Below are positions 1,882 through 27,229 of a DNA stretch of 64,000 nt, in pieces (positions within the stretch are counted from its first letter, which is position 1; the number at the start of each line of letters is the position of its first letter). Position numbers and translations under genes: made by a program. Origin of the DNA: Alphaproteobacteria bacterium (lineage in GTDB: Bacteria; Pseudomonadota; Alphaproteobacteria; G965222575); NCBI GenBank assembly GCA_965222575.1, contig OZ244958.1, forward strand, positions 288,001 through 352,000. The letters are read 5' to 3'. The notes beneath the pieces are model-generated. The model did not search any database. It had not been told where the DNA came from and saw only the letters and a program-made list of their open reading frames with translations.

Positions 1882-1883
1882 AA

Positions 1884-3589: not shown

Positions 3590-3595
3590 ATCCCC

Positions 3596-3631
3596 TTTAT
3601 AGCAAAGAGAATATGATATGTTCAGAGTCTA
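3596..3631 (-). promoter_or_regulatory. Putative phage late promoter (TAGACTCTGAACA-17nt-TATAAA), 6 nt before the fibre ATG
   Basis: Same 13-mer and identical spacing to the start codon as at 11035-11070. Confidence 0.6.
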
Positions 3632-4603: not shown

Positions 4604-4665
4604 CCCTATCCCTTTCTCTAATCAATCATTTGTTGTTACAGTTTACAGAAAATTGTTAAAAAAAG

Positions 4666-6916: not shown

Positions 6917-6976
6917 GTCTACAGATTTGAACTTTCACGCCTAGTAACCCCTGAGAGGGGATTTTATCCTTTGTTC

Positions 6977-7832: not shown

Positions 7833-7834
7833 GG

Positions 7835-8161: not shown

Positions 8162-8165
8162 ATAC

Positions 8166-9026: not shown

Positions 9027-9047
9027 TTTCTTTTTCCTTTTTTTGAT

Positions 9048-9773: not shown

Positions 9774-9776
9774 GTC

Positions 9777-11028: not shown

Positions 11029-11034
11029 ATCCCC

Positions 11035-11070
11035 CTTATACACCCCCTAAAACCCCTTGTTCAGAGTCTA
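11035..11070 (-). promoter_or_regulatory. Putative phage late promoter (TAGACTCTGAACA-17nt-TATAAG), 6 nt before the protease ATG
   Basis: Same 13-mer and spacing as at 3596-3631. Confidence 0.6.
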
Positions 11071-11097
11071 CTGAAACTTTTTTTGTGTCTAGACACT

Positions 11098-11125
11098 TTG
11101 ACTTTTAGAAGAGTTCGTATACAAT
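11098..11125 (+). promoter_or_regulatory. Sigma70-like promoter TTGACT-16nt-TACAAT directly upstream of a solitary CRISPR repeat
   Basis: The -10 ends 6 nt before the repeat; perfect palindrome GTGTCTAGACAC at 11085-11096 just upstream of the -35. Confidence 0.6.
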
Positions 11126-11131
11126 AATCTT

Positions 11132-11163
11132 GTCGCGCCCCTCGCGGGTGCGTGCATTGAAAC
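11132..11163 (+). CRISPR. Solitary type I-C-like CRISPR repeat (no array)
   Basis: GTCGCGCCCCTCGCGGGTGCGTGCATTGAAAC: 32 nt, GTCGC start, hairpin, ATTGAAAC end, as in I-C repeats. Confidence 0.85.
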
Positions 11164-11513
11164 ATCTTAGCAAGCTTAATACCCTGAGTAATAAAGTCCT
11201 CAGCCTGATTGTACGGGGGGTTGGTAACAATGTTGGGGACTTGCTTGTAGCAGGAGAGCGCTGAGATGAAATCCCAACCCGCCTCGCCATATCCATACTC
11301 GTAAAGGTCAGTTGATTTCACACAATATCCCGCCTGCTCTAATACTTTAGACATCGCCCCTAGTCCGCAAGCAGGCTCCCAGATATCGCCGACAAACTGC
11401 TCACACTTCAACAGCGCTTCTGTCGCCCAAACAGGAGTCGGATAAAAATCCGATTCAGGTCTACGCGGGGAACCACTAGTGGGGAACCCATTACTTTCCT
11501 TGATTTTCTTCAT
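11164..11513 (-). pseudogene. Small phage SAM-dependent N6-adenine methyltransferase, truncated at the CRISPR repeat
   Basis: DFYPTP, IWEPACGLG, TDL, NIVTNPPY motifs; after GIKLAKM the ORF reads through the repeat and promoter to a stop at 11061. Confidence 0.75.
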
Positions 11514-11627
11514 CTACCTGCTATAATAATTGGTAATGATGTCTGGGGAAGTTAAGTAGCATTGATCCACGGAAAGGTCGCCACTGCCGCTTCTTTGCTT
11601 CAGGTAAGCCGTGTTGCTTGGAGTACA

Positions 11628-12896
11628 TCATTTGCGTGTTCCCCCTTTTTTATATAAAAGAAACCCTTCTCGGACGTTGTTTAAGGTGTTCTTTTGACTG
11701 CGATTCAAAAATGTTAAGTCCTCTAACATACCTGCCGCCCCCTGAATAACAAAAATAACGTTGCTTTGTTCACCAAAATCAAGATTACAAATATATCTCT
11801 TTCTGATAACAGGCATACTCCTGCCCTTATAAACTCTCCTTTCAATGGTGCGCCAGATTTCTTGAGGGTTCTTGATTGCCTCCAGTAGTCCGCTTATATA
11901 TTTCCCACGCTTCAACCCCTTGCTCTGATATAAGTGTAGAGCTAGAGACTTTGCGTTTACTCTCACCGCTCCACCCATCACATCTTTCATGATGACATTA
12001 CCCCCACCCATGACTTTAGCAATGGATTCTTCCAGCTCTTTACCACTTGATGGCGAAGGGCTTGGCTTCATTTTTTTCAGTACGGGCAACTTTTCCTCAA
12101 GTCCGTGGTCTTTCCAATTTTTCAGGTTTTTGTTTGTTATCATCCACTTTTTTTTGTTCATCCCCCACGCCCGCAGTGTCGCAAACCCGAGGAAATCCGC
12201 GTAATTCCCCGTCCCAGCATTATAGGCAAAGCCCGGTGATATCCCCTGTGGCACACTCACCATTACCCGCCCCGCACTTGTGGTCATAGGGCGTATTTCC
12301 TTCCTAACGCGGGGGGCTTTTTTGGCAACTTTTAATCCTCGCCGACCCAAATCCCTATCATTAAGACTTTGGACACTACACCGACAACCCCAGCCATTAG
12401 GCGGCGTATGAGTCGACCACCACCCATCATCCACAGGGAGTATGGTATTATGCCAACTGCCATGCTCCGGGCGCTCCCGACCATCCATTAGTGCCGTATA
12501 ACGGAGATAGGGACGCGTTTCTTTGGTTGACTGTATCTGCTCCCACCGCCCTGCCGCATAGGCACTCCGTATGTTGGTCTGATAGATTATTCGACTCCGC
12601 CATGCTTTGTACTTTCTTCCTCCCTTTTGATACTTTTTCCAGCCGTGCCGTCCCGCAATTTCATTGAGATTTTTTCTGAACCACTTTAAGTCCTTGCCCT
12701 CTTCCATTGCGCGCAACAGAGAAGTATGGATATCCGCTAAACATTGCTCATTGCGCAGACCAGCCACCATAAAGGCACGACTATGCGCCCCCTGCCAAAT
12801 GTCATTCCAGCGCTCTGTTGGAACTTTGTGCTTCTTCTGCAGGAAATCAATAGCTTCTCCAAAAGGTAAGCCTCTGTTTATGACCTCACTCGTCAT
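11628..12896 (-). CDS. MuF/SPP1 gp7 minor head protein with C-terminal PBECR2-like extension
   Basis: AFMVAG, YQTNIRSAYAAGRW, DGRERPEH, PPNGWGCRC motifs; C-terminal LEAIKNPQEIW...KRYI. Confidence 0.88.
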   Translation of the reverse strand: MTSEVINRGLPFGEAIDFLQKKHKVPTERWNDIWQGAHSRAFMVAGLRNEQCLADIHTSLLRAMEEGKDLKWFRKNLNEIAGRHGWKKYQKGGRKYKAWRSRIIYQTNIRSAYAAGRWEQIQSTKETRPYLRYTALMDGRERPEHGSWHNTILPVDDGWWSTHTPPNGWGCRCSVQSLNDRDLGRRGLKVAKKAPRVRKEIRPMTTSAGRVMVSVPQGISPGFAYNAGTGNYADFLGFATLRAWGMNKKKWMITNKNLKNWKDHGLEEKLPVLKKMKPSPSPSSGKELEESIAKVMGGGNVIMKDVMGGAVRVNAKSLALHLYQSKGLKRGKYISGLLEAIKNPQEIWRTIERRVYKGRSMPVIRKRYICNLDFGEQSNVIFVIQGAAGMLEDLTFLNRSQKNTLNNVREGFLLYKKGGTRK

Positions 12897-14120
12897 TATC
12901 TTTGTATTCGTCTTGCCCTACCAAATGAGACAACGCTATGGCTTGTTGTAGTTTCTTTGGCGCTTCCCCTTTGATGTCTAACGCCTCTAGTTTGCCCGCC
13001 AAATCCTCTAAGGATGTAGCTTTGTTAGTAAGCTTTTCAATGTCTTTTAATATCTCCGCATCCCCATCACTCTCAAGCGATTCCTCTACTAAATAATCCA
13101 CACTATCCAGCACCTCCTCATCTTCTCCTGCTGCCATCTCTTCGTCTTTAGAGACCTCAGAGAGGCTTTGTGTGGTCATCCCCTCTGTCGCACCTGTCCG
13201 CGAAGGCGTATCATTTTCGTCCTTAGGCGCCGGCAATCCTAACTTTGAGCGTATAGCCTCTGCTGAGATTTTTACCCCTCTATCCATGGCCTTCATCACC
13301 ATGTCCATATCCGCCTTTTCTTCTGGCTCTATGACAATCTTGGGATATGCCTGCCTCTCACCACGATTAAGTGCCACTATCAACGGCACGACTTGCCTAT
13401 TGATTGTCTGGGCAATGGCAGTAGCATCCGACCTTAAAATAGAGGCTTTAACTTCGCCGTGGACTTTGGCTTGTGACATTGACGACCCGTCATCCGTTGT
13501 CATAGTTTGACCCAACACAAGCTTTGATATCTGTTTGTTAGAGTATTCTAACAATTTCTGATGGTCTGAGGAGGATTGGCCTTTGCCCCAAATCAACTCT
13601 ATATTCATACTTTGAGGCACCGCCGCCGCCATGTCAGACGACAGATTACGCAAGGCGCTCAACAGCTTTGTCTTGTCCTCTTCAGTGGCCTCCGCCCCAA
13701 ACTTGCCAACTCGAATAGGTTTGCCGAACAGTTCAAGATATTCCACCCAATCCTTCAGACTGAATTGCTGGTACAACCACAGCATCAACGCAGGCATAAG
13801 TAATCCTGCCGGAGTACCAGAAGACTTAAAACTATGCCGATGCACAACAATTTTGCCTTGTGGGATTTCCTCTTCATCTCCGACACTAGTGTCCTCTTTT
13901 TTCAGTTTCCATGCCCCCTCTTTGTGGACAAATCCCCTTTGGTCACGCCATTGAATATCCGGATGCCATACGTCCGAGTGGCGCCAAACAAGCTCTCCTA
14001 CCGAAAAACCCTTGGGGAGTGCGTCAAGTAAATCATAGACTACCTCTTCCCACGCTAATGACGATATCCATTGCTCTATTAACTCAGCATCGTCCTTTGA
14101 CGAAGGCGTATCATCCGCCG
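12886..14120 (-). pseudogene. Mu gp29-like portal (DUF935), frameshifted near 13900 and missing its N-terminus
   Basis: ELFGKPIRVGKF, ISKLVLGQTMTT; upstream frame reads ADDTPSSKDDAELIEQW...YDLLDALPKGFSVGELVW and ends where the ankyrin gene begins. Confidence 0.85.
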
Positions 14121-14588
14121 CTACACGAAGCAGCGAAAAAGGGGGATTTACAACAGTGCCAAGAGTTAATTTTGAAGGGACACGATGTTAATGAAAGAGA
14201 AGATAGTCGTTGGTCTGGTCACTTCACTCCTCTTCATTATGCTGCGGCGAGGGGACATTTGGATGTTGTATATTTACTCCTAAGTAGTGGTGCTCTTATT
14301 GATGCTCGGACTGTTTCAATGCGTGATACCCCCTTGGATAGAGCAAACAACAGAAGAAAGTGGAATGACGATGAGAGTACTAAGAAAATAGCGCTATTTT
14401 TAGCACAAGGAGGCGTTTGGGTAGAGGGACAAGATATCAACAAGGCTCTCCCTTCTGAGAAGGATAATACCCAAACACAGCCTAATGACCCCGATGAAGA
14501 TGATGGTGGTACTTTCTGGTTCTGGTTTTGGCTGATTTCAGCTATTTTCGTTGGCCTCGTAATTATAAGAAGAAAGAAGAAGAAATAG
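14112..14588 (+). CDS. Ankyrin-repeat protein with C-terminal TM anchor and basic tail; native 5' end apparently lost
   Basis: PLHEAAKKG, TPLHYAAARGH, TPLDRA; FWFWFWLISAIFVGLVII then RRKKKK; the first ~65 aa of ORF 13911 are antisense portal sequence. Confidence 0.75.
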   Translation, partial: HPPLHEAAKKGDLQQCQELILKGHDVNEREDSRWSGHFTPLHYAAARGHLDVVYLLLSSGALIDARTVSMRDTPLDRANNRRKWNDDESTKKIALFLAQGGVWVEGQDINKALPSEKDNTQTQPNDPDEDDGGTFWFWFWLISAIFVGLVIIRRKKKK

Positions 14589-14649
14589 CGTGTTGCCAAG
14601 CACGCTTTATAGCTTTATAGTATATTTATGGATAAAAATATAAAGGTGA

Positions 14650-15075
14650 ATGATGAAAAAGCTAATGATACTCAGTGCTTTGGGTGTAATCATAACACTT
14701 ACTTTTCATAGCCACCCTGTTAAGGCAGGAGTTTTAGATTCACTGCTCAAGCAACTGGTTGAGGAGAAAACTGGTATCTCAATTGACCAACTGACAAAGT
14801 CTATCCAAGAGGCAGCAAAAGCTGGAGATTTGAAGGGGATAAAAAAATTCATAGGGGAGGGAGCAAACATCAATGGGAGTTCTTTCGCGGACTCACCGCT
14901 GAAAAAAGCTATTGAGGGGGGGCACAAGGAGGTAGTAGCGTTCCTAGTGGAGAAGGGGGCTTCTGTGAAGGTACAGGATAAGGACGGCTTAACACCGCTT
15001 CAGTTAGCGGTTAAAGGAGGCAATAAGGATATAATTAGTATCCTAGAAACAGAACTCAATAAGACAGAAAATTAG
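14650..15075 (+). CDS. Secreted ankyrin-repeat protein (copy 1, intact signal peptide)
   Basis: MKKLMILSALGVIITL...VKA signal peptide; SPLKKAIEGGH and TPLQLAVKGG repeats. Confidence 0.88.
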   Translation: MMKKLMILSALGVIITLTFHSHPVKAGVLDSLLKQLVEEKTGISIDQLTKSIQEAAKAGDLKGIKKFIGEGANINGSSFADSPLKKAIEGGHKEVVAFLVEKGASVKVQDKDGLTPLQLAVKGGNKDIISILETELNKTEN

Positions 15076-15177
15076 TGCGTAAGCTGTAGCTTGTGCTCTT
15101 CTTTGTAGGCTTTCTCAAACAAAGCTTCACCTTTGTCTCTTGAAAACACCTGTTCCAATTTTGGACATCAATTAGTT

Positions 15178-15197
15178 TCTAATTTTTTACCACAATT
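15178..15197. repeat. 20-bp motif TCTAATTTTTTACCACAATT, repeated at 26836-26855
   Basis: Exact match; both copies lie downstream of a tRNA 3' end. Confidence 0.75.
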
Positions 15198-15217
15198 CAC
15201 AAAGGGTTGCCATGAGT

Positions 15218-15294
15218 TGGTGGGCGGTGACGGGCTCGAACCGCCGACCCTCTCGGTGTAAACGAGATGCTCTACCAAACTGAGCTAACCGCCC
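15218..15294 (-). tRNA. tRNA-Val(TAC)
   Basis: GGGCGGTTAGCTCAG...TCTCG TT TAC AC CGAGA...GGTTCGAGCCC...CCGCCCACCA cloverleaf with encoded CCA. Confidence 0.97.
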
Positions 15295-15335
15295 CCTCCG
15301 AAAAAAAACTTCCTCGTAAACCCCAGTAGCACAAC

Positions 15336-15542
15336 CTATATATAAAACGATGGACGCTTCCTCATCACCTTACGTGAACGCCGAAGCGTCTCAGAACGCT
15401 CCCGCTTCTTCCTCTCCGAAGGCTTCTCGTAATAACGATGCAACTTCATCTTCCTCAATAACCCCTCACGCTGTAGCTTCTTCTTCAAAAACTTCAACGC
15501 ATGCTCTATATTCCCTCCTCTCACCGTCACTTCTAACGTCAT
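15336..15542 (-). CDS. rpsU: 30S ribosomal protein S21
   Basis: NIEHALKFLKKKLQREG...YYEKPSERKKR. Confidence 0.95.
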   Translation of the reverse strand: MTLEVTVRGGNIEHALKFLKKKLQREGLLRKMKLHRYYEKPSERKKRERSETLRRSRKVMRKRPSFYI

Positions 15543-15710
15543 AAAAATCCCACTCAACCTTTCTTCATTACTTCCCCCACAAAAGCATACACCCTCTTAA
15601 AAAAACTCGCAAGATAAAAATCCCCCACAAATTCCCCTCTACATTTTTCCCTCACTATCCTTTATGATAGCATAAAGGCTCAACCTTCCCTCGTAAACCA
15701 TGCCCCCACT

Positions 15711-15989
15711 ATGAAAACACAACACAAAATCCTCCGAAGCTTCCTACAAGAATGGCAAGAATGGATCGCTTCCTTACTCGCTATCATCGGCTGCTTGCTC
15801 CTCGCTTTGAACTCCCTTGTCCTCTCAAAATGGGCTTACCTCTTCCTGCTCCCCTCTACCTTAGGATGGCTCGTCCTGTCTTGGCAACGGCATATGCCAC
15901 ACCTTGCTCTCCTCAATATCGTCTTGTCCTTTATCAATGTCTGGGGACTCTATGCATGGATCATTATCCCTCTCCTCTCATCACAATGA
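15711..15989 (+). CDS. Small membrane protein (about 3 TM segments)
   Basis: Hydrophobic EWIASLLAIIG...INVWGLYAW; stop overlaps the cysS ATG. Confidence 0.6.
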   Translation: MKTQHKILRSFLQEWQEWIASLLAIIGCLLLALNSLVLSKWAYLFLLPSTLGWLVLSWQRHMPHLALLNIVLSFINVWGLYAWIIIPLLSSQ

Positions 15990-17347
15990 TTATCCCTCCT
16001 CTCTTGCTCTATGATACACCAAAAGGCAAAAAACGACCCTTCATACCACGCAACCCTCAGCAAGTCGCTCTTTATGTCTGTGGCCCTACTGTCTATGACT
16101 CCCCTCATATCGGTAATGCGCGCGGTGCCCTGACCTTTGACCTCTGGGTACGACTCTTAAGACTCTTTTGGAACGTCAACTATATTAGAAATATCACAGA
16201 TATCGATGATAAAATCCTCGCCAAAGCACAACAAACAAAAATCCCTTGGCAAACAATCGTTGAAAACAATATCAAAGCCTATCATGCAGACATGGAGTGC
16301 TTGGGACTTTTGAACCCTTCTCACGAGCCAAGAGCGACACAGCATGTCCCTCAAATTATCGATTTTATTCAAAAAATCCTCTCAAAAAAACACGCCTACA
16401 CTAACCATCAACATGTCCTATTCGATGTCACAAAAACGAAACATTATGGACAGTTCGCACGCAAAACCCTCTCGGAAATGATCCCCGGCAAACGGGTCAC
16501 TGTAGAAAACTACAAAAAAAATCCTCTGGACTTCATCCTGTGGAAACCCTCCCATGACAATGAAGCAGGATGGAACTCCCCTTGGGGACGCGGACGACCA
16601 GGATGGCACATAGAATGCTCCGTTATGTGCTACCTTTATTGCGGCGAAACTATCGATATCCACGCAGGCGGCGCTGACCTCATCTTCCCTCACCATCAAA
16701 ACGAACTAGCTCAAACAACAGCCCTCACACACAAACCCTTAGCCAATTATTGGCTCCACAACGGACTGTTAACCACCAATAATGCTAAAATGTCCAAAAC
16801 CGTCGGCAATATCTTCTTGGTGAAAGACCTCCTCAAAACCTTCCAACCAGAAGTCCTCCGCTTAGCCCTCATCAAAACACACTATCGACAACAACTCTCC
16901 TTCTCAACCTCAACCCTCAAACAGGCAAAAGACCTCTTAGATAAATGGTACAGACTACTCCTCTCTCAACCCCCAACCCCCCTAACCCCCCCTAAACCCC
17001 ACAACCCAACTTCTCTTCAAGCAGACTTTCTAAACGCTCTCATGGATGACCTCAATATTCCAAAAGCTCTCTCCGTCCTCCATGTACTAGCAGAAAATGA
17101 ACCCATCTCTGCCCTCAAACACAACGCCCAATTCCTTGGACTCCTCCTGCAAAACCCTCAACAATGGTTCCAAGACCAAACAGAGACAACCTTAAAACAA
17201 GAGGATATCCAACAGTTAGTGCTCGCACGACAAACCGCACGGAAAAACAAAAACTTCAAAGACGCTGATGCTATTCGTGATAAGCTCTTAAAATATGGCA
17301 TTGCTCTTGAAGATAAAGGGGACAAAACCTTTTGGAGAGGAAAATGA
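15986..17347 (+). CDS. cysS: Cysteine--tRNA ligase
   Basis: [28 protein letters not shown]; start MIIPP. Confidence 0.97.
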
Positions 17348-18330
17348 GATTCCTAACAGCTTTTTCTTGTCTCTCTTTTCTTTTCATCATGCCTAAAACT
17401 CATGGTGTTGATAAACCCTTCCCCCAATGGCTCAAACAGCTCAAACAAGAAGCATTAGCCAAAGGATTTCAGCCGTTACTTGTGAAAACCGCCCTTGATG
17501 TCACCTATCGTGAGCAAATCCTCAAAAAAGACCAAAACCAACCCGAACAAAAACGCCTCTTCCAAGAGTACAAATCCGCCCTTCTTTCACCCAGCCGCAT
17601 CAGAAAAGGACAACAAATTCTGTCACAACACCATGCCCTCCTTGAGAAAATAGAACAGACTTACGGCGTGCCGAAATCACTCCTTGTAGCTATTACAGGT
17701 GTAGAAAGCTTCTATGGATTACAGCAAGGCAAAATCCCTGTGGGGGAAGCTCTTGTGGCACTGGCGTATCATAGCCGCCGTAGTACCTTCTTTCGTCGCG
17801 AAGTCTTTGCTTTCTTAAACATTGTCAAAACACTGAATATTCCCCCTAAAAGTCTCCTAGGTTCATGGGCAGGCGCTTTGGGGATGATTCAATTTTTGCC
17901 CACAACCTATCTTGCCTATGCTGTAGATTTTGATGCCGATGGAAAAACCGATATCTGGAAAAACTGGGCGGATGCTTTTGCTTCCGTAGCCTCTTTCCTC
18001 AAACAACGAGGATGGAACACCTCTTCTTATTGGTTTGAAAAAGTTTCCCTCCCCCCACAGTTCCTCATGCCTGCACACTTAAAATCAGGCTGTACCCTTA
18101 TCGAAAAACTGCCTTCACCCAATACTTTGCCACACTGGCGCACAAAAAGACTCAAACTTCTCTCAAAATACCACCCCTCCCTCCCTACAGATGACCAGAA
18201 ACTCTACCTCATCACCCTAGACAACAACGCATACTTAGTAACAAGCCATTATCTTGCCTTATTATCCTATAATTGCTCCCATTACTATGCGCTTTCTATC
18301 ACCCATCTCGCACATGCTTTCCAACAATAA
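17344..18330 (+). CDS. Lytic murein transglycosylase (MltB/SLT_2 family)
   Basis: GVESFYG, GSWAGALGMIQFLPT, AVDFDADGKTDIW, YNCSHYYA. Confidence 0.9.
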   Translation: MRFLTAFSCLSFLFIMPKTHGVDKPFPQWLKQLKQEALAKGFQPLLVKTALDVTYREQILKKDQNQPEQKRLFQEYKSALLSPSRIRKGQQILSQHHALLEKIEQTYGVPKSLLVAITGVESFYGLQQGKIPVGEALVALAYHSRRSTFFRREVFAFLNIVKTLNIPPKSLLGSWAGALGMIQFLPTTYLAYAVDFDADGKTDIWKNWADAFASVASFLKQRGWNTSSYWFEKVSLPPQFLMPAHLKSGCTLIEKLPSPNTLPHWRTKRLKLLSKYHPSLPTDDQKLYLITLDNNAYLVTSHYLALLSYNCSHYYALSITHLAHAFQQ

Positions 18331-19372
18331 TAACAAAAAGCCTGCTCTCCCTTTGCTCTTCCTGAGTGTTTGCCTGCTTGCCGTTTTCCCTCTACAGGGG
18401 TGTTTCAAAAGAGCCCCATCGCCACCACCTCCTCCGCCTCAAGAACCATCACAACCCTCGCAAAGTACAGCAAGAGACCTCAAAATTTTCTCTCCGCCCC
18501 CCTTGAATGCTTCAATCGATAACGTCCTGGTAGGCGTGCCTTATAAAATCAAAGGCAAATGGTATAGCCCTAAAAAAACCTCCCGTTACAAGGAAACAGG
18601 AATCGCTTCTTGGTATGGAAAACCATTCCATGGACGAAAAGCCGCTAATGGGGAAATTTACAACATGTACCACCTCACAGCAGCTCATCAAACGCTACCC
18701 TTGCCTTCTATCGTACGGGTCACCAATTTAGACAATAACCGCTCCTTGCTTGTGCGAATCAATGATAGAGGCCCCTTTATCAATGGACGCATTATTGACT
18801 TGAGTTTACGGGCCGCTCAATTACTAGACTTACATCAAAAGGGTCTTGCGCCCGTTCGCGTCGAACTGGTTTCGCCCTCTCAAGAAGAGCTACAGCAACA
18901 AGCCCTTGCCTTAAAACTCTCCTGTGAAGGACGCCTCTCTTTAGATAAAGCCCTATCCGGGTATCCCAACACACTGCCTACAGAAACAGACAACAAAACA
19001 CAGGACGACACAGAAGAGAATTCTCTCTTGAAAAGAGTTGGTAAAATCCTAGAAGAATTGGCTGACCAATTAGAAAACCGTCCTTTATCTCTTAAAGAAT
19101 TGCTACAAGAAAAGGCGGAAACCGCTGAATATAAAATTTTTGTGCAGGTTGCAGCGCTTTCCATAGAAAAAAATGCCGTGACACTCAAGAATTTCCTGCA
19201 AGACAAGTTACAAACCCCTGTGCAAATCATGCCGTACGCTGTCTCCTCTTCTCGTATCCTCTTCAGAGTCTCCGTAGGGCCTTTTGAGAGCCTTGAAAAA
19301 GCTGATGATATCCTACAGCGGCTCATTGACACAGGGTATCAGGACTCCATCATTGTCGTACGCAGGTTCTAA
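18314..19372 (+). CDS. rlpA: Septal lytic transglycosylase RlpA with SPOR domain
   Basis: Lipobox LQGC; GIASWYG, TAAHQTLPLP, RINDRGPF, RIIDLS; C-terminal SPOR. Confidence 0.92.
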   Translation: MLSNNNNKKPALPLLFLSVCLLAVFPLQGCFKRAPSPPPPPPQEPSQPSQSTARDLKIFSPPPLNASIDNVLVGVPYKIKGKWYSPKKTSRYKETGIASWYGKPFHGRKAANGEIYNMYHLTAAHQTLPLPSIVRVTNLDNNRSLLVRINDRGPFINGRIIDLSLRAAQLLDLHQKGLAPVRVELVSPSQEELQQQALALKLSCEGRLSLDKALSGYPNTLPTETDNKTQDDTEENSLLKRVGKILEELADQLENRPLSLKELLQEKAETAEYKIFVQVAALSIEKNAVTLKNFLQDKLQTPVQIMPYAVSSSRILFRVSVGPFESLEKADDILQRLIDTGYQDSIIVVRRF

Positions 19373-20041
19373 ATGCCACCTCCTCTTATCGCCCCTTCTC
19401 TCTTAGCAGCCAACCCCTTGGACTTCAAAGAAGAAATTCTCCATCTCCAGCACCATACGGAAGCCGATAGACTGCACCTAGACGTCATGGATGGACATTT
19501 CGTACCAGCTATTTCCTTTGGAGCAGGCTTGATTAAGGCTATTAGGCATCTCACGACTCTGCCCCTTGATGTGCATCTGATGATAACGCCTACTGCCTCT
19601 TCTGTGCACCAGTTTATTGAAGCGGGTCCCGACTCCATTGCTATTCATTATGAAGCAGACAAAAATCTTACGCCTTTCTTGGAAGCGATTAAAAAAGCGA
19701 AGATAAAAGCAGCGTTAGCAATCAATCCTCGCACCTCGTACACTCTTCTTATCCCTTTCTTGCCCCTTTTAGACCAGATTGTCATCATGACGGTTGTGCC
19801 GGGAGAATGCGGACAGCCCTTTTTACCGGAGATTGTTGGGAAAGTGCAAGCCCTTAAAAAGCTCATTGTGGAAAAAAACCTGCCTATCCGCCTCGTAGTA
19901 GACGGCGGTATCACCCTTAAGACAGCCCCTATTGCACTTCTAGCCGGGGCGCATATTCTTGTTAGTGGCAGTGGACTTTTTTCCTTCCCAAGAGAACAAA
20001 GAGCTTCTGTTATCAAGAAAATGAAAGAGCTTCCCTCGTGA
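19373..20041 (+). CDS. rpe: Ribulose-phosphate 3-epimerase
   Basis: IAPSLL, HLDVMDGHFVP, DVHLMI, VDGGI. Confidence 0.96.
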   Translation: MPPPLIAPSLLAANPLDFKEEILHLQHHTEADRLHLDVMDGHFVPAISFGAGLIKAIRHLTTLPLDVHLMITPTASSVHQFIEAGPDSIAIHYEADKNLTPFLEAIKKAKIKAALAINPRTSYTLLIPFLPLLDQIVIMTVVPGECGQPFLPEIVGKVQALKKLIVEKNLPIRLVVDGGITLKTAPIALLAGAHILVSGSGLFSFPREQRASVIKKMKELPS

Positions 20042-21603
20042 TAAAAGATATTCGTCCTATAAAAAGAGTGCTTGTGTCTTTAGCTGATAAAGAGTCGTTT
20101 TTGCCTTTTATCAAAGACATTGTCTTGCTAGCGGAGCAACACCACCACCCTGTTGAACTGCTCTCAACAGGTGAGACTGCCAAGGTTTTAAGAGAGCAGG
20201 GTCTTTCCGTTATACTTGTGGAAGAGGTGACGGCTTTTCCGCCTCTTCTCGGGGGGCGCGTAAAGACACTCCATCCTAAAATCCATGGGGCTCTTTTAGC
20301 GTCTCCTGATAATCAGGCACACCAGAAAGAGATGCAGCACTATGGGATAACCCCTGTGGATATGGTGATTGTGTCTTTATACCCTTTTGAAAAAGCTGTC
20401 AAAGACGGACTATCTCCCCAGAGGTGTTTAGAACAGATTGATATAGGCGGGTCTGCTCTATTGAGAGCTGGGGCTAAGAATGCAGACAATGTGAGTGTGA
20501 TTTGTGATACTGAAAGTGCTCGTTGTGCCTTAGAGGACATGAAAAAATTTGCCGGTATCCGACTTAAGACGCGTAAACAATTGGCGTACAAAACCTTTAG
20601 CCTCACGGCGCGTTACGATGCTCTTATAGCGCAATACTTACAAAAAAAAGAGTCGGGAGAATCCTTTCCTCCAACATGGACACTTACCGGCACACGCAAG
20701 CAAGTATTGCGCTATGGGGAAAACCCCCACCAAAAGGCGGCAGCTTATGTTACCACGCAAGGAGGTCTCCTTAGTGCTTCACAACTTCAAGGAAAAGAGT
20801 TGTCCTTTAATAACTTATTAGATGGTAATAGCGCTTGGAAAATTGTGACAGCCCTAGCCCCTCATCCTTGCCCACATAAAGTTGTCATTGTCAAGCATGG
20901 TAACCCTTGTGGCGTTGCAAAGGGGGCGTCTCTTCTTGAGACATGGAACAAGGCTCTTCATGCCGATAAAATCAGCGCTTTCGGTGGTATTATTGCTGTG
21001 AACTCAACCATCCATAAGGATGTTGCAGAGGCCATGACAAAGGAGTTCATTGAACTTGTACTTTGCCCCTCCCTCACAGAAGAGGCAAAAAGTGTCTTTC
21101 AACGAAAAAAATCCTTACGCCTGCTAGTGACTGCCGCACCTCCTCCTGCCTTGTATGAAAGTCGCCCCATCAGTGGAGGCTTTTTAGTACAAGAAGCGGA
21201 TACTCCCCCCCTCTCTCCCGATACCTTCCAAGTGGTGACCCACAAAGCCCCTACTCCCCAACAGATGGAAGACCTTCTTTTTGCTTTTGATGTCTGTCGG
21301 TTTGTACAATCAAACGCCATTGTTTTAGCGAAAGACGGGGTTACTGTCGGTATTGGAGCTGGACAAATGAACAGACTAGATAGTGTGAGTCTTGCTCTCC
21401 AAAAGGCAGCCCAAGGCAAAGGGTTGGTAGCTGCTAGTGATGCCTTCTTTCCTTTCCCAGATGCCCTAGAACTCTTAGCAAAGGCAAAAGTGGAAGCGGT
21501 GATACAACCCGGGGGGGCTAAGAGAGACCAAGAAGTTATCTCGTCTGCGAACCGCACTGGTCTTGCCATGGTGATGACCCGCCGCCGTGCTTTCTCGCAC
21601 TAA
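20038..21603 (+). CDS. purH: AICAR transformylase/IMP cyclohydrolase
   Basis: GRVKTLHP, IDIGG, LRYGENPHQ, ASDAFFPF. Confidence 0.97.
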   Translation: MIKDIRPIKRVLVSLADKESFLPFIKDIVLLAEQHHHPVELLSTGETAKVLREQGLSVILVEEVTAFPPLLGGRVKTLHPKIHGALLASPDNQAHQKEMQHYGITPVDMVIVSLYPFEKAVKDGLSPQRCLEQIDIGGSALLRAGAKNADNVSVICDTESARCALEDMKKFAGIRLKTRKQLAYKTFSLTARYDALIAQYLQKKESGESFPPTWTLTGTRKQVLRYGENPHQKAAAYVTTQGGLLSASQLQGKELSFNNLLDGNSAWKIVTALAPHPCPHKVVIVKHGNPCGVAKGASLLETWNKALHADKISAFGGIIAVNSTIHKDVAEAMTKEFIELVLCPSLTEEAKSVFQRKKSLRLLVTAAPPPALYESRPISGGFLVQEADTPPLSPDTFQVVTHKAPTPQQMEDLLFAFDVCRFVQSNAIVLAKDGVTVGIGAGQMNRLDSVSLALQKAAQGKGLVAASDAFFPFPDALELLAKAKVEAVIQPGGAKRDQEVISSANRTGLAMVMTRRRAFSH

Positions 21604-21668
21604 TCCGTCTCTATCTAGGGGAAACATGGGGGATAGAGAAGAGACCTTGTACAAAGGAGGTGAAGAAG

Positions 21669-21755
21669 GTGAAAAACCCTATTGTTGGGACGAATATAGA
21701 GCGCCCCACTTGGCTCTCCCCAGAACAAGCAGTACAATACTTAGGAATCAAGTAA
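21669..21755 (+). pseudogene. Truncated excisionase-like HTH_17 protein
   Basis: AGGAGGT SD then GTG: MKNPIVGTNIERPTWLSPEQAVQYLGIK-stop; WLS..QA..YLGI resembles the first helix of Xis/HTH_17. Confidence 0.55.
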
Positions 21756-21761
21756 TTGAAA

Positions 21762-21843
21762 ATAAGGCACTTGCAGAGGAAAGATGGATGTGATATCTTA
21801 ATGAGATAAGGATAAGGCACTTGACGGAGGAAAGATGGATGTG
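21762..21843. repeat. Two ~31-bp direct repeats (ATAAGGCACTTG..GAGGAAAGATGGATGTG), 50-bp period
   Basis: 21762-21792 versus 21812-21843. Confidence 0.75.
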
Positions 21844-22006
21844 GCAAAATAAATTTCATCTAGCGGAGCCGTGGGGGATAACGGAAATGAGGCAGGAAAT
21901 GGGTGCAAGGATATTGAAAATTAAAACTTGACAAAGGATTGGAAATTGCTTATACTCTAAAAAGATTTGAAAATGTGGTATATTAATAAAATAAGGATAT
22001 AAAAAA

Positions 22007-22342
22007 ATGAATTTATTAGATAAGATAGGAAAGAGGCTAAAAATAGAAGATCTGAAAGGGCTTCCAGACGATCTCAGGATTCAGTTAAATTTTGCTAGGA
22101 AGATTCCATTATCTGATGAGATTACTCATATCATAGATAGTAGGTATCAAGGGGCAGCAGATATTGATGAAATAATTTATGAATTTTATAAGAGGAAGCA
22201 AAAAATCATACAGCGCAAGGACTTCTATAAAATTATAAACAATATGCTGAAAAATAACATGATTTATAGAGTTAAAGGCAGAAGAGGAGTTTATTGCACA
22301 AGTGAAGGGAAAAAAATATGTGAAAACGAAATAGAATCATGA
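22007..22342 (+). CDS. Hypothetical winged-helix-like protein
   Basis: DLKGLPDDL...DIDEIIYEFY...MIYRVKGRRGVY; AT-rich; TTGACA/TATACT promoter-like boxes upstream. Confidence 0.6.
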   Translation: MNLLDKIGKRLKIEDLKGLPDDLRIQLNFARKIPLSDEITHIIDSRYQGAADIDEIIYEFYKRKQKIIQRKDFYKIINNMLKNNMIYRVKGRRGVYCTSEGKKICENEIES

Positions 22343-22385
22343 AGAATGGACTATAAATATAGTACTCTAATTTTAGGTAGGTTGT

Positions 22386-24197
22386 ATGAAGCTCATTAAA
22401 TTCCGGATACAAAACTATAAATCTATCAAGGACTCTGGGTGGTGCGACCTTGACTCTGATTTAATAGTACTTGCAGGTAAAAATGAGTCTGGGAAAACTT
22501 CAATTCTTGAGGCTCTACGGGATTTTAATACTAACGTTGAGAATCTGGAGGATGCACAGCCAATTGATAATAATGATGATAAACCTAAAATTACAATGTG
22601 TTTTGAGGTTAAAAAGCCGTTATTAGATGCAATTGCTAAGGAAGGAGATTTGAAAATCACTCGTGAGGTACGAGGTTATATATCAAAAAATCCTGTAACT
22701 ATTTCGAAATTTCATGATGGCGAGTATTGTATGAACGAAGAGCTTAATACTCTTCTTAATAAGGAAGAATTGAAAGAGCAGAAAGACGAAACACAAAAGC
22801 TTTCCAATATACTGAAAAGCTTGGATTTTTATGAAGAACTAGAAATTCCTTCTTTACAAGGTATTACTACCTCTGAAGAACTCAAAGAGTGCATTAGCAA
22901 AATCAGAGGAAAATTAGAAGAGTACTCTTTTAACGAAAAAGATACAATTATTAAAAAGCTAGAAACTATCACTAATGCATTACAAATAGATAGTATCTCA
23001 AGTAAATTCCTACAAAAGCTAAAAGAGAAAATCCCAAACTTTATACTCTTTACCAGTTTTTCAGATCTTTTGCCTTATGAAGTACCATTTAGTGAAATAA
23101 AAAATCACAAGGCAATAAAATATTTTGAGACAATAGCTAATCTTGATTTAGAGAAGATTGGTCAAGAAAGTGATTCACAAAAACGTTCTATTCAATTAGC
23201 AAAAGCAGCAGCAAAAATTACAGGTAACTTTCATGACTATTACAAGCAAAATAAAATTGATCTTTCTGTTGTCCCAAATGGAGAGAAGATATGCTTTTGG
23301 GTGAAGGATAGTAACTCTACTACACTGTTCAAAATAGAGCAAAGAAGTAAAGGCTTTCAATGGTTTTTATCTTTTTATCTATGCCTCAACGCAGAGTGTA
23401 GCGACAATGAAACAAGCGTCATTTTGATTGATGAACCTGATTTGCATCTCCATGCTAAGGCACAACAAGATGTATTGAAAGTACTAACTGACCTTTCAAA
23501 GAAATCTCAAGTCATATTTGGCACGCACTCACCCTATTTAATTGATGCAGAAAGACTTGATAGAGTGCGCCTAGTGGAGAAAAGAGTGCGCCTAGTTGAG
23601 AAAGATGAAGAAGAAGAAGGGACAAAAATTAATGGAATTCATAAAAATGCTGGTGCTGAAACACTAACACCTATCATAACAGCCATTGGACTTGATCTAT
23701 CACAATCCTTATCTTTTGAAAAGAGTAAAAAGCATGTATTACTTGAGGGGATATCTGACTATTATTACATGGAGGCCTTTCGAGAGCACTTGAATCTAAA
23801 GGTTGATCTAAGTTTTATTCCTTGTATAGGCGCCTCAAAGATACCTAATCTTGTGTCTTTATTAATAGGCTGGGGCTTCGACTATGCAGTAGTTTTAGAC
23901 AATGATAAAGCGGGAAAGACAGTTGAGAAAAAACTAAAAACAGGTATGATAATAGAGAAGAGAAAAATTATTTTTGTTGGGGAAGAAAATGACAACATTG
24001 AAGCATTGTTTTCAAAAAATGATAGAGAGCAGCATGATATTGAGTCAGACAAATCAAACAAAGCCTTAATAGCAAAAGAATTGCATGAGAAGGCTCTTAA
24101 AAATTCACTCTCTGTATCAAACGAAACAAAATCTGCTTTCAAAAAACTCTTTGAAAAAATTGAAGACGCCTTTCAAGAAAAAAACTCCTCCAATTAG
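22386..24197 (+). CDS. OLD-family ABC-ATPase/TOPRIM nuclease (candidate anti-phage protein)
   Basis: Walker A GKNESGKT, SKGFQWF signature, Walker B ILIDEP, THSP, TOPRIM LLEGISD and VLDND. Confidence 0.85.
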   Translation: MKLIKFRIQNYKSIKDSGWCDLDSDLIVLAGKNESGKTSILEALRDFNTNVENLEDAQPIDNNDDKPKITMCFEVKKPLLDAIAKEGDLKITREVRGYISKNPVTISKFHDGEYCMNEELNTLLNKEELKEQKDETQKLSNILKSLDFYEELEIPSLQGITTSEELKECISKIRGKLEEYSFNEKDTIIKKLETITNALQIDSISSKFLQKLKEKIPNFILFTSFSDLLPYEVPFSEIKNHKAIKYFETIANLDLEKIGQESDSQKRSIQLAKAAAKITGNFHDYYKQNKIDLSVVPNGEKICFWVKDSNSTTLFKIEQRSKGFQWFLSFYLCLNAECSDNETSVILIDEPDLHLHAKAQQDVLKVLTDLSKKSQVIFGTHSPYLIDAERLDRVRLVEKRVRLVEKDEEEEGTKINGIHKNAGAETLTPIITAIGLDLSQSLSFEKSKKHVLLEGISDYYYMEAFREHLNLKVDLSFIPCIGASKIPNLVSLLIGWGFDYAVVLDNDKAGKTVEKKLKTGMIIEKRKIIFVGEENDNIEALFSKNDREQHDIESDKSNKALIAKELHEKALKNSLSVSNETKSAFKKLFEKIEDAFQEKNSSN

Positions 24198-24404
24198 GGG
24201 TATCGTTCTCCTTTATAGTGAAGGATAGTCCAATCCCTTTACTTAGCACTCCACATTTATAACTTATTAATTGATTACCTGAATTGATATTCAATTATAG
24301 TGTATTTCCTCTTGATGTTGAAATCCCTGTAGTCTCTTCCTTCTATTTGAAAACTTCCCTGTGTCCTAGTATCCTGAAGTGTAGGAAAGAAGAGGAGAGG
24401 AGGT

Positions 24405-24755
24405 ATGTTCACCCCTTATCAAGCAAAGAGTTATGCGTACGACTTGACGGCTAAGAAGACAGGCTCAGAGCGCCTATCAGCCTCTTTAATGGAAGCAGAG
24501 ATTGAGACCTCAACCCCCATCAGATTGGAGCGGCTCTCTTTGTCTTGCGCTCTCCGCTCTCCAAAGGCGTCATCCTAGCGGACGAAGTCGGTTTAGGAAA
24601 GACCATTGAAGCAGGCCTCGTCCTTTGCCAGTACTGGACAGAGAGCAAACGCCACCTTCTTGTGATATGCCCTGCCTCCTTACGCCAGTAGTGGGCTTTA
24701 GAGATGAAAAGACAAGTTCCATCTGCCTAGCGCTATCATTGAAGAGAAGACCTCA
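24405..24755 (+). pseudogene. SNF2/DEAH helicase N-terminal fragment
   Basis: MFTPYQAKSYAYDLT / frameshift / DLNPHQIGAALF.LRSPLSKGVILADEVGLGKTIEAG...VICPASLRQ-stop. Confidence 0.85.
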
Positions 24756-24866
24756 CTCCCCCGTCTCCCCTTTTTCTCCCGTCTCCCCCGTCTCCCCCTT
24801 ATCCCCATCTTTGCCATCAACCCCTTTGGTTTTAATCTCCGCTACCGCCTTTAACGCCTCCGCCGC
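24753..24866 (-). pseudogene. Collagen-like (Gly-X-Y) fragment, probably from a phage fibre gene
   Basis: AEALKAVAEIKTKGVDGKDGDKGETGETGEKGETGE. Confidence 0.55.
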
Positions 24867-25128
24867 CGCAAAAGCTGGAGATTTAGCGGCTATAAAAACA
24901 TTGATAGGGGAGGGGGCAAACATCAACGGGAGTTCTTTCGCTGACTCACCGCTGAAAAAAGCCATTGAGGGAGACCACAAGGAGGTAGTAGCGTTTCTAG
25001 TGGAGAAGGGGGCTGATGTGAATGCAAAGACCAAGGACGGCATAACACCGCTCCAGTTAGCCAAAAAAAGCGGCAATAAGGATATAATCAAAATCCTAGA
25101 AACAGCGCTCAATAAGACAGAAGATTAG
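24865..25128 (+). pseudogene. Ankyrin protein copy 2, 5'-truncated
   Basis: Near-identical to the C-terminal parts of copies 1 and 3 from AAKAGDL onward. Confidence 0.8.
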
Positions 25129-25184
25129 TGCGTAAGCAGCTGTAGCTTGCCCAATATTTCAATAACGATACAAAGCCTTGGACG

Positions 25185-25226
25185 ATACAAAGCCTTGGAG
25201 GTTTTGTGGACACCAAGGCTTCGTAT
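25185..25226. terminator. Hairpin ATACAAAGCCTTGG...CCAAGGCTTCGTAT downstream of CRISPR repeat unit 2 (and of ankyrin copy 2)
   Basis: 14-bp stem with one G-U/mismatch; stem conserved but loop different in the 26658-26699 copy. Confidence 0.7.
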
Positions 25227-25252
25227 TTGATTACAAGGATACGATATATTTC

Positions 25253-25284
25253 GTTTCCATGTGACACGCCCGCGAAAGCGTGAA
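25253..25284 (-). CRISPR. Solitary degenerate type I-C-like repeat (unit 2)
   Basis: Minus strand TTCACGCTTTCGCGGGCGTGTCACATGGAAAC, 32 nt, hairpin plus GAAAC end. Confidence 0.65.
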
Positions 25285-25291
25285 TACCCCT

Positions 25292-25320
25292 AAGATATAA
25301 ACTTTTTCACTCGTTGTCAA
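25292..25320 (-). promoter_or_regulatory. Sigma70 promoter TTGACA-17nt-TATCTT, 7 nt before repeat unit 2
   Basis: Consensus -35 with optimal spacing. Confidence 0.7.
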
Positions 25321-25519
25321 TAGACTCTAATTTAAGAGAAAAAACTCCTAACATTTGCATTCTCCCCACAAAAGCTATAGACTTTGATAAAAAAGACGGG
25401 ACAAGCCTTTTGTGCTAGAGGCTGACTATGAAGGAGAGGATATCTCTTTAGTAGGCCGCGTAGTAGCCAGCATGCGGGAGTGGTAATCTCTATCCTAAAA
25501 CAAACTAAGATATCCCTTT

Positions 25520-26002
25520 ATGGCTTATAAAAAATGTCCAAACTGCTCAGAATTTAAGTTTAACGGCTTTATTTGTAAAAATTGTAAGTACAAATCGCCG
25601 CTAAAGAAAAAAACCGATATAATAGCCTTTGGCTTTCTTGCTATTTTTCTTCTAGGCATTTTCATTTTGGGAAAAGACGAACAGGCTAGCAAAGACGAAC
25701 AGGCTAGCTTGGAAGAGTCTGAAAAGCAGATAACTCTTGAGGATATCAAATAGGATGTGTATTTCAGAGCAAGAGACTCCATGAAAGAAGTAATAAAGGC
25801 ACCATCAACAGCAAAATTCGCTAGCTATTCTGATAGTACCATAGTAACCGATGGAGGATGGCCTGTAGTAACTGTTAGTGTTATCTCATATGTTGATGCG
25901 CAAAATTCCTTTGGCGCTATGCTCCGACAGAACTTCAAAGTTATAGTCTCTTATAACTATAACACTGATAAATATACCCTTCTTGATTACTCTCTTTATT
26001 AA
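25520..26002 (+). pseudogene. Zn-ribbon/TM phage-type membrane protein interrupted by an in-frame TAG at 25751
   Basis: ORFs 25520-25753 (CPNC..CKNC, TM) and 25757-26002 (KAPSTAKF...SYVDAQNSFGAMLR) are in the same frame. Confidence 0.7.
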
Positions 26003-26227
26003 AATCCAATTACAGGCACATCTGGGGCGTGACTTTTCCCCGGCTAGCCTGCTCTTCTGTGAAGTCTTGATTTTGTTTTTCTTGTCTCTCAAGAGATAAA
26101 AAATCTACAAACCTTTATTTTCTGGGCGGGGGAAAATTGCAAATGTTTATTTTCCGAGAGCTCTTTTTGATGTTCCGCCTATAAGGGGGTATAAACCAAG
26201 TTAAAATAAGGGTTTATACGCGGTTAG

Positions 26228-26629
26228 ATGCCCTTAGATGCCTTTACAAGCCTTTATTTGTTTTTACACCCTGCTAAGGCAGGAATTTTAGACTCACTGC
26301 TCAAACAAATCGTCAAAGAGCAAACGGGTATTGATATTGATAACCTTACCTCTGCAATCCAAGCGGCGGCTAAAAGTGGAGATTTAGCGGCTATAAAAAC
26401 ATTGATAGGGGAGGGGGCAAACATCAACGGGAGTTCATTCGCCGACTCACCGCTGAAAAAAGCCATTGAGGGAGACCACAAGGAGGTAGTAGCGTTTCTA
26501 GTGGAGAAGGGGGCTGATGTGAATACAAAGACCAAGGACGGCTTAACACCGCTTCAGTTAGCGGTTAAAGGAGGCAATAAGGATATAATCAAAATCCTAG
26601 AAACAGCGCTCAATAAGACAGAAGATTAG
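26228..26629 (+). CDS. Ankyrin protein copy 3, signal peptide replaced
   Basis: Homology to copy 1 starts at HPAKAGILDSLLKQ (~26268). Confidence 0.75.
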   Translation: MPLDAFTSLYLFLHPAKAGILDSLLKQIVKEQTGIDIDNLTSAIQAAAKSGDLAAIKTLIGEGANINGSSFADSPLKKAIEGDHKEVVAFLVEKGADVNTKTKDGLTPLQLAVKGGNKDIIKILETALNKTED

Positions 26630-26657
26630 TGCGTAAGCTGTAGCTTGTCCAATAACG

Positions 26658-26699
26658 ATACAAAGCCTTGGAGGTTTTAGCGCCACCAAGGCTTCGTAT
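26658..26699. terminator. Hairpin downstream of CRISPR repeat unit 3
   Basis: Same stem as 25185-25226. Confidence 0.7.
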
Positions 26700-26725
26700 T
26701 TGATTACAAGGATACGATATATTTC

Positions 26726-26757
26726 GTTTCCATGTGACACGCCCGCGAAAGCGCGAA
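26726..26757 (-). CRISPR. Solitary degenerate type I-C-like repeat (unit 3)
   Basis: Minus strand TTCGCGCTTTCGCGGGCGTGTCACATGGAAAC; differs from unit 2 by one A-to-G change that keeps stem pairing (G-U). Confidence 0.65.
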
Positions 26758-26764
26758 TACCCCT

Positions 26765-26793
26765 AAGATATAAACTTTTTCACTCGTTGTCAA
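26765..26793 (-). promoter_or_regulatory. Sigma70 promoter TTGACA-17nt-TATCTT before repeat unit 3
   Basis: Identical to 25292-25320. Confidence 0.7.
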
Positions 26794-26954
26794 TACCTAG
26801 TCCAGTAGTGGGGGTATCTCGGCTTGTGCGCCTGCTCTAATTTTTTACCACAATTATTTCCCCAACTTGGCAAAAATTACCATTCGTAATTTCCCCAGTC
26901 CGCTCAGCTGTACCAATGCCTAATCACTCTTTACCCCTTATTTAACATGGTTTA

Positions 26955-26990
26955 CCTGTCCTAATCTGTCCTAATCTGTCCTAACCTGTT
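26955..26990. repeat. 10-bp tandem repeat CTGTCCTAAT, about 3.5 copies
   Basis: Seen directly, ~50 bp from the tRNA-Met 3' end. Confidence 0.7.
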
Positions 26991-27039
26991 TTTACATGCC
27001 TTTATTTCTTTTCACACAGATCATCCTACTCAAAAGCCC

Positions 27040-27113
27040 TAGCGGGAGAGGGACTTGAACCCCCGACACATGGATTATGATTCCACTGCTCTAACCAACT
27101 GAGCTATCCCGCC
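27040..27113 (-). tRNA. tRNA-Met(CAT), elongator-like, CCA not encoded
   Basis: GGCGGGATAGCTCAGTTGGTTAGAGCA GTGGA AT CAT AA TCCAT...GGTTCAAGTCCCTCTCCCGCTA. Confidence 0.93.
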
Positions 27114-27229
27114 ATCACCTCCTTCTATTCTTCAAGATTTTTCCTCCCTTGACAAGATAGAATATCTCTTCACACGCCCCCTTGGACATGCTATCCTATC
27201 ACAATCAAAAAAAAAATAGAGAGAATAGC

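Follow-up and report, generated by a model that had tools for sequence, protein, structure and literature searches.

A solitary type I-C CRISPR repeat in a Mu-like prophage as a candidate RNA anti-CRISPR unit, and a probably unrelated ankyrin-associated small RNA gene of the same alphaproteobacterial genome

Within the window analysed here, a stretch of 64,000 nucleotides of an Alphaproteobacteria bacterium (positions 288,001-352,000 of contig OZ244958.1, assembly GCA_965222575.1, the genome being a single contig of 1,215,846 bases), a lone CRISPR repeat of type I-C is found between two late genes of a Mu-like prophage, at 11132-11163 of the forward strand and directly behind a predicted promoter. 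This repeat, termed site 1 below, is a new case of a published class, the solitary I-C repeat of prophages, and a candidate RNA anti-CRISPR (Racr) or CRISPR RNA (crRNA)-like RNA. Two further stretches of the window, sites 2 and 3, had been described in the initial annotation as I-C-like repeats and as candidate cassettes of the same kind. According to the reading that is considered rather probable, site 1 is an RNA anti-CRISPR or crRNA-like decoy unit, and sites 2 and 3, together with a third copy elsewhere in the genome, represent an unrelated small RNA gene.

That phages evade and hijack CRISPR by means of solitary repeats has been recognised only recently, and just a few cases of type I-C have been studied. 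Site 1 is a clean case, with both cassette edges defined within a few bases and the matching system on the same single-contig genome; since the handle would be kept on its long product, unlike in the best-studied Racr, it is a good test case for a Cascade-filling decoy versus a real guide. The ankyrin-associated small RNA of sites 2 and 3 is new.

Identity of the solitary repeat

The host Cas7 was used as a query to retrieve 80 I-C loci of other genomes, the arrays of 54 of them were taken, and the 47 distinct full-length repeats that were kept were aligned and converted to a covariance model, which served as an objective test of the term "I-C-like". The model was searched without filters against the 64-kb window and the locus of the third small RNA copy, 74,000 bases in total. 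Site 1, with the sequence GTCGCGCCCCTCGCGGGTGCGTGCATTGAAAC, scored 39.4 bits (E 2.9e-8), and all other matches in the same bases were at E 3.3 or worse; the repeats of the host array reach 48.8 bits each by the same model. A search of the whole genome, in which 150 of 393 candidates were scored, returned the host array, an inverted and diverged repeat of its trailer, site 1, and otherwise noise.

Compared directly with the host repeat, site 1 is identical at 28 of 32 bases, with four differences, has a Smith-Waterman score of 48 (20 for sites 2 and 3), and is the sole sequence outside the array with at most 10 mismatches. All nine columns that are invariant among the 47 aligned repeats are kept, as are seven of the eight nearly invariant ones; position 24, located in the handle, is C in site 1 versus G in at least 90% of the 47 repeats. 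The hairpin is retained by means of a G-U wobble (predicted fold of -13.6 kcal/mol), and of its last 11 nt, 10 agree with the 5' handle of the host. There is no second repeat near site 1, and the cas operon is ~262 kb off, as expected for a solitary repeat unit (SRU). The alternative of a mini-array was rejected, because it needs at least two repeats around a spacer and only one is present. Both the covariance model and the host-repeat comparison identify site 1 as a genuine solitary type I-C repeat.

Promoter, cassette borders and the broken methyltransferase gene

The sigma-70-like promoter of site 1, TTGACT-16-TACAAT (11098-11125, forward strand), was detected by a consensus scan with 10 of 12 positions matched and ends 6 nt upstream of the repeat start at 11132. 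Promoter-like sites of at least 10/12 number just 296 in the 1.216-Mb genome, both strands together, and the chance of one ending 5-9 nt before a fixed base is ~6e-4. A perfect 12-bp palindrome, GTGTCTAGACAC (11087-11098), recognised by reading the sequence, abuts the -35 box and is a possible operator. The layout of promoter, repeat and downstream sequence is thus present at site 1 as it was first described.

Palindrome, promoter and repeat make up a cassette of 78 nt (11086-11163), because both flanking homologies end at its borders. On the left, the homology with a paralogous protease-upstream fragment (genome 992,148-992,321) begins at 11085, which places the edge at 11085/11086; on the right, the homology of a phage DNA methyltransferase gene ends at the repeat. 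The N-terminal ~115 codons of this gene are found at 11169-11513 of the reverse strand (phrog_799, profile positions 203-307 of 458), and its open frame, 11061-11513, continues through the repeat and promoter as junk. The truncated methyltransferase is matched by 190 phage records, with the match ending at query residue 110-116 in the 12 listed; two relatives that are annotated at full length comprise 186 and 189 amino acids, and therefore ~75 residues are missing from the prophage protein. Judged by these homologies, the cassette took the place of the 3' part of the methyltransferase gene.

The guide-sized sequence 3' of the repeat (11164-11199, forward strand), delimited by sequence and homology, is antisense to the truncated methyltransferase gene. 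A blastn-short search of the genome found no second full match of it beyond chance matches of 11-15 nt, and neither this sequence nor the repeat cores had an exact match in the viral contig collection. Contigs from three DNA runs over 9500-27500 were fragmented and of mixed strains, and the site 1 junction was not resolved by them.

The prophage late region (1-13845, reverse strand; Pfam and PHROGs) includes the genes of a portal fragment, Mu F, protease I, major head, neck, baseplate, fibre and sheath proteins. Site 1 lies between Mu F (11628-12896) and the Mu-like protease I (10129-11043) and is oriented against these late genes, being on the other strand; the head, neck, baseplate, fibre and sheath genes run from protease I to the window start. 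The portal fragment (12886-13845) matches only profile positions 128-336, and beyond it follow an unknown open reading frame (ORF), an ankyrin gene, tRNA-Val and cysS. The prophage is probably a remnant. Relatives of its Mu F were found at six viral and five metagenome loci, all at 32-45% identity; no repeats were found in the six viral loci, the five metagenome loci not having been scanned.

Scattered Mu-like fragments occur in addition at 119.9-146.1 kb of the genome and at 992,148-992,321, with identities of 53% for the portal, 42% for the protease, 48% for the head and 77% for a 44-residue protease start. Mu-like phages of this type have invaded the genome more than once, and every copy looks broken.

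The host type I-C system

The initial annotation recorded the absence of cas genes, which is correct for the window; the genome, however, contains a complete I-C operon, cas3-cas5d-cas8c-cas7-cas4-cas1-cas2 (by Pfam, Csd1 being Cas8c), and beside it, at 26.7-29.0 kb, an array in which GTCGCGCCCCTTGTGGGCGCGTGGATTGAAAC occurs 29 times without a mismatch, besides degenerate end copies. The genome check that had been suggested for such an operon thus revealed an I-C system in this host, and the refutation that its absence would have meant does not apply. Operon and array are ~260-270 kb from site 1. Because a full operon and an array with a near-identical repeat are present in the same genome, the borrowing of the host Cascade by site 1, whether for a decoy or for a guide, is plausible.

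A relation between this array and the prophage is observed as well. Spacer 22 has a partial protospacer at 6253-6288 of the window (forward strand), with 25 of 36 positions matched, of which 22 of 24 are in one run, and with TTA in front; it was found by blastn-short at E 0.006 against the genome and is the sole prophage match among the host spacers compared. The match suggests that a relative of the prophage was targeted in the past, while the mismatched part proximal to the protospacer-adjacent motif (PAM) would argue against present cleavage.

Some further features of the CRISPR locus may be mentioned. The host array, at genome 26,762-28,954, has spacers of 13 to 42 nt and several truncated repeats, and its trailer contains on the opposite strand, at 26,822-26,854, the inverted diverged repeat, which scores 39.8 bits; the uneven spacers and the truncated and inverted repeats suggest array decay or the remains of a second, opposite array. 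A repeat identical to that of the host over all 32 bases was found in the I-C array of OZ251487.1, a gammaproteobacterial metagenome-assembled genome of 1.83 Mb, the Cas7 of which is just 58% identical. The scan of the DNA upstream of cas3 found no CreR-like or other repeat-like element. A Phd/Doc-like toxin-antitoxin pair is suggested there by reading alone (genome 37.0-37.7 kb), with Doc apparently interrupted, and a strong intrinsic terminator separates the pair from cas3.

Proposed action of site 1 and its alternatives

The predicted start of transcription is the beginning of the repeat of site 1 or a position just ahead of it. The host Cas5d would then cleave the RNA at the hairpin's 3' base, a cut that is predicted from the 11-nt handle to fall between 11152 and 11153, and the products would be a 21-nt hairpin and a long RNA that has 10 of the 11 bases of the native 5' handle and an open-ended 3' part. 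The handled RNA would load the host Cas5d/Cas8c/Cas7 in competition with the host crRNAs, and it would thereby serve as an RNA anti-CRISPR or as a crRNA-like decoy protecting the prophage and its kin.

The model fits the published Racr units (Camara-Wilpert et al., Nature 2023, PMC10651486). In that report, solitary repeats are common on viral sequences (2,103 of them), ~83% of the prophage SRUs agree with the host in subtype, an I-C Racr, RacrIC1, was validated as inhibiting I-C interference, and a non-targeting crRNA alone also lowers interference by competition. Site 1 is similar to the Racr units as described there, being a single repeat that is carried by a prophage (between Mu F and protease I), lies directly behind a predicted promoter and away from the cas genes, and resides in a host with a system of the same subtype. 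It differs from RacrIC1, which is co-transcribed 11 nt behind an acrIC5 homologue, in having its own predicted promoter and no recognised acr neighbour. The active part of RacrIF1 is reported to lie upstream of the cut and to be devoid of the 5' handle, whereas the transcript of site 1 is predicted to begin at the repeat and to yield a long product with the handle. The mini-arrays of phages are similar to site 1 as CRISPR repeat material that is carried by a virus and relies on the host Cas proteins, but they have at least two repeats around a spacer.

Several points weigh against a decoy or anti-CRISPR function of site 1. Nothing is predicted to be transcribed upstream of the repeat, unlike in RacrIF1 with its active upstream part, and the C at position 24 could weaken the binding of Cas5d. 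Nothing terminator-like that would bound the RNA was found before a weak terminator at 11477, and no second hairpin bounding it was found in the fold. No acr-like gene was recognised among the flanking genes, no Acr library having been searched, and the relatives of Mu F (six viral loci scanned) included no related phage that has this cassette. The portal of the prophage is devoid of its N-terminal part and no terminase gene adjoins it, and the cassette could be a leftover in such a remnant-like prophage.

These points lead to the alternative, judged unlikely, that site 1 is a functionless scar, namely a repeat captured by illegitimate recombination or by a failed CRISPR-related event, with the promoter being fortuitous or serving something else. 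The seemingly truncated prophage, the altered near-invariant base of the handle and the absence of a terminator would agree with a scar, as would the downstream "guide", which is mere antisense of a broken gene, and the fact that no conserved counterpart was found elsewhere. Against a scar, the position of the 10/12 promoter fits the repeat start exactly (P ~6e-4) and its -35 box is adjoined by the perfect palindrome of 12 bp; a wobble change preserves the hairpin, the invariant columns are kept nine out of nine, and the repeat has four differences from that of the host and therefore was not simply picked up from the host array.

The other alternative, assessed as slightly less likely still, is a true guide, by which Cascade would be aimed at rival phages with an intact methyltransferase or, through partial pairing, at a host promoter in the manner of silencing by Cracr or crRNA-like RNAs (crlRNAs). 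According to Liu et al. (bioRxiv 10.1101/2024.10.29.618823), viral single-repeat Cracr RNAs, I-C included, silence cas and toxin promoters via at least 9-10 PAM-proximal matches. The order of promoter, repeat and sequence with a 10/11 handle corresponds to these published Cracr and crlRNA units and not to RacrIF1, and the Cracr resembles site 1 in its one repeat-like unit with a spacer-like sequence on a phage. Yet Cracr units are defined in that source by at least 9 PAM-proximal matches to the spacer of a host CreA/CreR or to a cas or toxin promoter, and they end in a terminator; for site 1, neither a target match of this type nor a terminator was found. The scan for at least 9 PAM-proximal matches with a PAM at a cas, toxin or defence promoter, which covered the cas locus, its upstream region, the prophage and the island, had no result, the cas locus and its upstream region being free of any seed match of at least 9 bases. 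One genomic site has a TTC PAM and 10 exact seed bases (404,959, reverse strand; ~0.04 expected by chance), and it lies 13-51 nt upstream of a gene of the fumarylacetoacetate-hydrolase family, a housekeeping-type gene rather than a cas, toxin or defence gene; it is regarded as a weak lead. No phage sequence of the viral contig collection matches the presumed guide, neither a 3' hairpin nor a terminator bounds the spacer-like part and would fix its length, and the sequence looks accidental, being whatever adjoined the break. The initial suggestion of a guide aimed at a competitor or a promoter was accordingly not borne out, with no convincing target for the downstream sequence of either repeat variant.

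The three-copy small RNA gene

The repeat-like stretches of sites 2 and 3, at 25253-25284 and 26726-26757 of the reverse strand, have the sequence TTC[A/G]CGCTTTCGCGGGCGTGTCACATGGAAAC, and their promoters, TTGACA-17-TATCTT, are at 25320-25292 and 26793-26765 of the same strand. The sequences at all three sites are as first described, and a sigma70-like promoter precedes each of them. Their designation as I-C-like repeats holds for site 1 (39.4 bits, 28/32), but not for sites 2 and 3: these sites and the third copy are absent at E<=10 from the filter-free model search of the 74,000 bases, and site 3, when searched alone, reaches 5.1 bits via "GU...GAAAC" alone. They agree with six of the nine invariant columns of I-C repeats, and three are wrong. 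Their resemblance being no better than chance, sites 2 and 3 are judged by sequence not to be type I-C repeats; a GC hairpin followed by GAAAC is insufficient to call an I-C repeat. A module with two repeat variants, which was initially thought to be reused at the three sites, is not supported, because the promoter regions of site 1 and of sites 2 and 3 share just the consensus hexamers.

Each unit is lone, as the initial annotation had it, but sites 2 and 3 are copies of a duplicated module of 141 nt, 96% identical, the third copy of which ("site 4") is located at genome 593,065-593,210. By alignment and promoter scan, site 2 (25182-25320, reverse strand) comprises the promoter and the small RNA module, with a 25-nt duplication after the terminator; site 3 (26655-26793, reverse strand), for which a fold was also computed, comprises the promoter and a small RNA gene of ~105 nt. 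The predicted RNA of 109 nt has a hairpin at its 5' end, followed by a small one and by a long terminator hairpin; it folds at -41.6 kcal/mol (z -4.8), and none of 200 shuffles was as good. The three copies agree throughout the promoter hexamers and, save one G-U/A-U change in the first stem, the RNA body, the differences being located in the 17-nt promoter spacer (four) and in the terminator loop (four). Such a distribution of differences suggests constraint on the RNA.

Each module copy stands tail-to-tail with an ankyrin gene of 133-167 residues. The small ankyrin-repeat genes convergent with site 2 (24625-25128) and with site 3 (26228-26629, within the same duplication) are on the forward strand and were identified by Pfam Ank; a fourth ankyrin paralogue (14650-15075) has no module. 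The surroundings are chromosomal, with cysS, lytic transglycosylases, rpe and purH, and then an OLD-family gene, the ankyrin genes, tRNA-Met, recA and aroA. Of the mobile DNA to which all the sites were initially assigned, the Mu-like prophage holds site 1, but sites 2 and 3 belong to a chromosomal island from purH to tRNA-Met/recA. Structure and promoter predictions together identify sites 2-4 as a gene for a structured small RNA of ~105 nt that has its own predicted promoter and intrinsic terminator and was duplicated with ankyrin genes. The RNA contains an ORF of nine codons with no clear ribosome-binding site.

Searches with Rfam gave only two tRNAs at gathering scores, and six matches at E<=10 over 10900-27200, none of them at the sites. 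As for relatives, none of the 40 other genomes contained the module (none of these being closer than the same class), and among three further genomes two had no match and OZ251487.1 no credible one, its sole match being 20 nt long at E 0.8. The near-identity of three copies within a single genome, with no relatives, is weak evidence of constraint.

A joint at 26793/26835 in the contigs of the DNA runs was considered as a variant of the locus and rejected, since it fits a paralogous locus at genome 1.096 Mb instead. A short motif like AATTGTGGTAAAAAATTAGA is found at 15178-15197 and 26835-26860, downstream of tRNA-Val and tRNA-Met, respectively; at genome 1,095,872-1,095,923 it abuts a copy of the -35 region of the small RNA, the RNA itself being absent. 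An old attachment or junction sequence is a possible interpretation of the motif.

Possible links of the small RNA to CRISPR

The host I-C crlRNAs that control defence genes (bioRxiv 10.1101/2024.12.27.630466), with CreTA/CreR, combine a repeat-like hairpin and 11-nt handle with a guide of partial match and, behind it, a 3' hairpin, a shape to which the RNA of sites 2-4 is loosely alike. According to that preprint, the cut is directly 3' of the hairpin with the 11-nt handle kept, the 3' end lies inside the loop of the 3' hairpin, and I-C control of Gabija is reported. These units are described as located within or beside cas operons, with a TTC/TTA-PAM target next to the regulated genes; sites 2-4, in contrast, are 285-565 kb from the cas locus, the repeat model failed on them, and no such target was found.

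On this comparison rests the proposal, here rated highly improbable, that sites 2-4 encode very degenerate I-C crlRNAs using the host Cascade, with a hairpin, a tail of 11-12 nt ending in GAAAC, a guide of ~33 nt and a 3' hairpin. The overall shape resembles that described in the preprint, the 3' hairpin is strong, the first seven and last eight bases are repeat-like, and the tail has 7 of 11 handle bases; in addition, an OLD-family nuclease gene is located 1 kb away, and GajA of Gabija is of the same family. However, for a score of 5.1 bits ~70 matches are expected per window by the scaled E-value, three of nine invariant columns are wrong, and no viral match was found in the viral contig collection. 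Neither the island, the surroundings of the third copy nor the cas locus contained a PAM-bearing target, and genome-wide there was none beyond chance; scanned locally, the cas locus, the prophage, the island and the region of the third copy had no target sites with a TTC/TTA PAM. The candidates that were rejected in the seed and PAM scan for sites 2-4 are non-PAM matches, among them a repeat family of four copies the PAM of which is ACA. An exact match of the small RNA over 13 nt, with TAA as PAM, lies inside the coding region of cas7; it was attributed to chance, and so was a 10-mer that lies upstream of the OLD gene.

Another link, and one hardly to be expected, would be that the small RNA regulates cas5d in trans as an antisense RNA, pairing with codons 2-10 of the mRNA. 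The predicted duplex has -25.3 kcal/mol and rank 9 of 1554 ORF starts, its energy is reached by two of 500 dinucleotide shuffles, and the single-stranded middle of the small RNA pairs at 14 of 15 and 6 of 7 positions, with the starts of the remaining six cas genes being unremarkable. The finding is, however, post hoc, with P ~0.03 after allowing for seven cas genes, duplex predictions give many false positives, and there is no conservation to test. Duplexes of the small RNA with the ankyrin gene starts were also considered and were unremarkable (ranks 531-1231 of 1554).

Taken jointly, the view that the RNA of sites 2-4 acts on the host I-C system, as a degenerate crRNA or as a cas5d antisense RNA, and that the site 1 cassette is a portable unit making whatever sequence lies downstream into a Cascade-loaded RNA, is considered improbable. 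If true, it would mean that a reduced, ankyrin-rich genome controls CRISPR-Cas in trans from loci beside putative effector genes.

Other features of the window

The OLD-family gene of the chromosomal island (22386-24197, forward strand) has a low GC content (33%) and encodes an ATPase-TOPRIM nuclease, the best PADLOC matches of which are AriA, Old, PtuA and GajA. It is preceded by an ORF of 111 residues (22007-22342) with a weak AbiEi-like match, and the two form a small defence island between purH and tRNA-Met.

Dense tandem repeats with units of 36, 145, 21, 14 and 20 nt occupy 48070-48615, 49102-49539 and 53408-54074, including seven 20-nt units like GCCCCTACAAAATTGTTGCT at 53894-54074. The region 54700-58750 contains 3-5 diverged direct repeats of 95-300 nt, with a tandem duplication of 1861 nt (55368-55667 versus 57229-57528, 96% alike); these direct repeats are probably paralogous genes.

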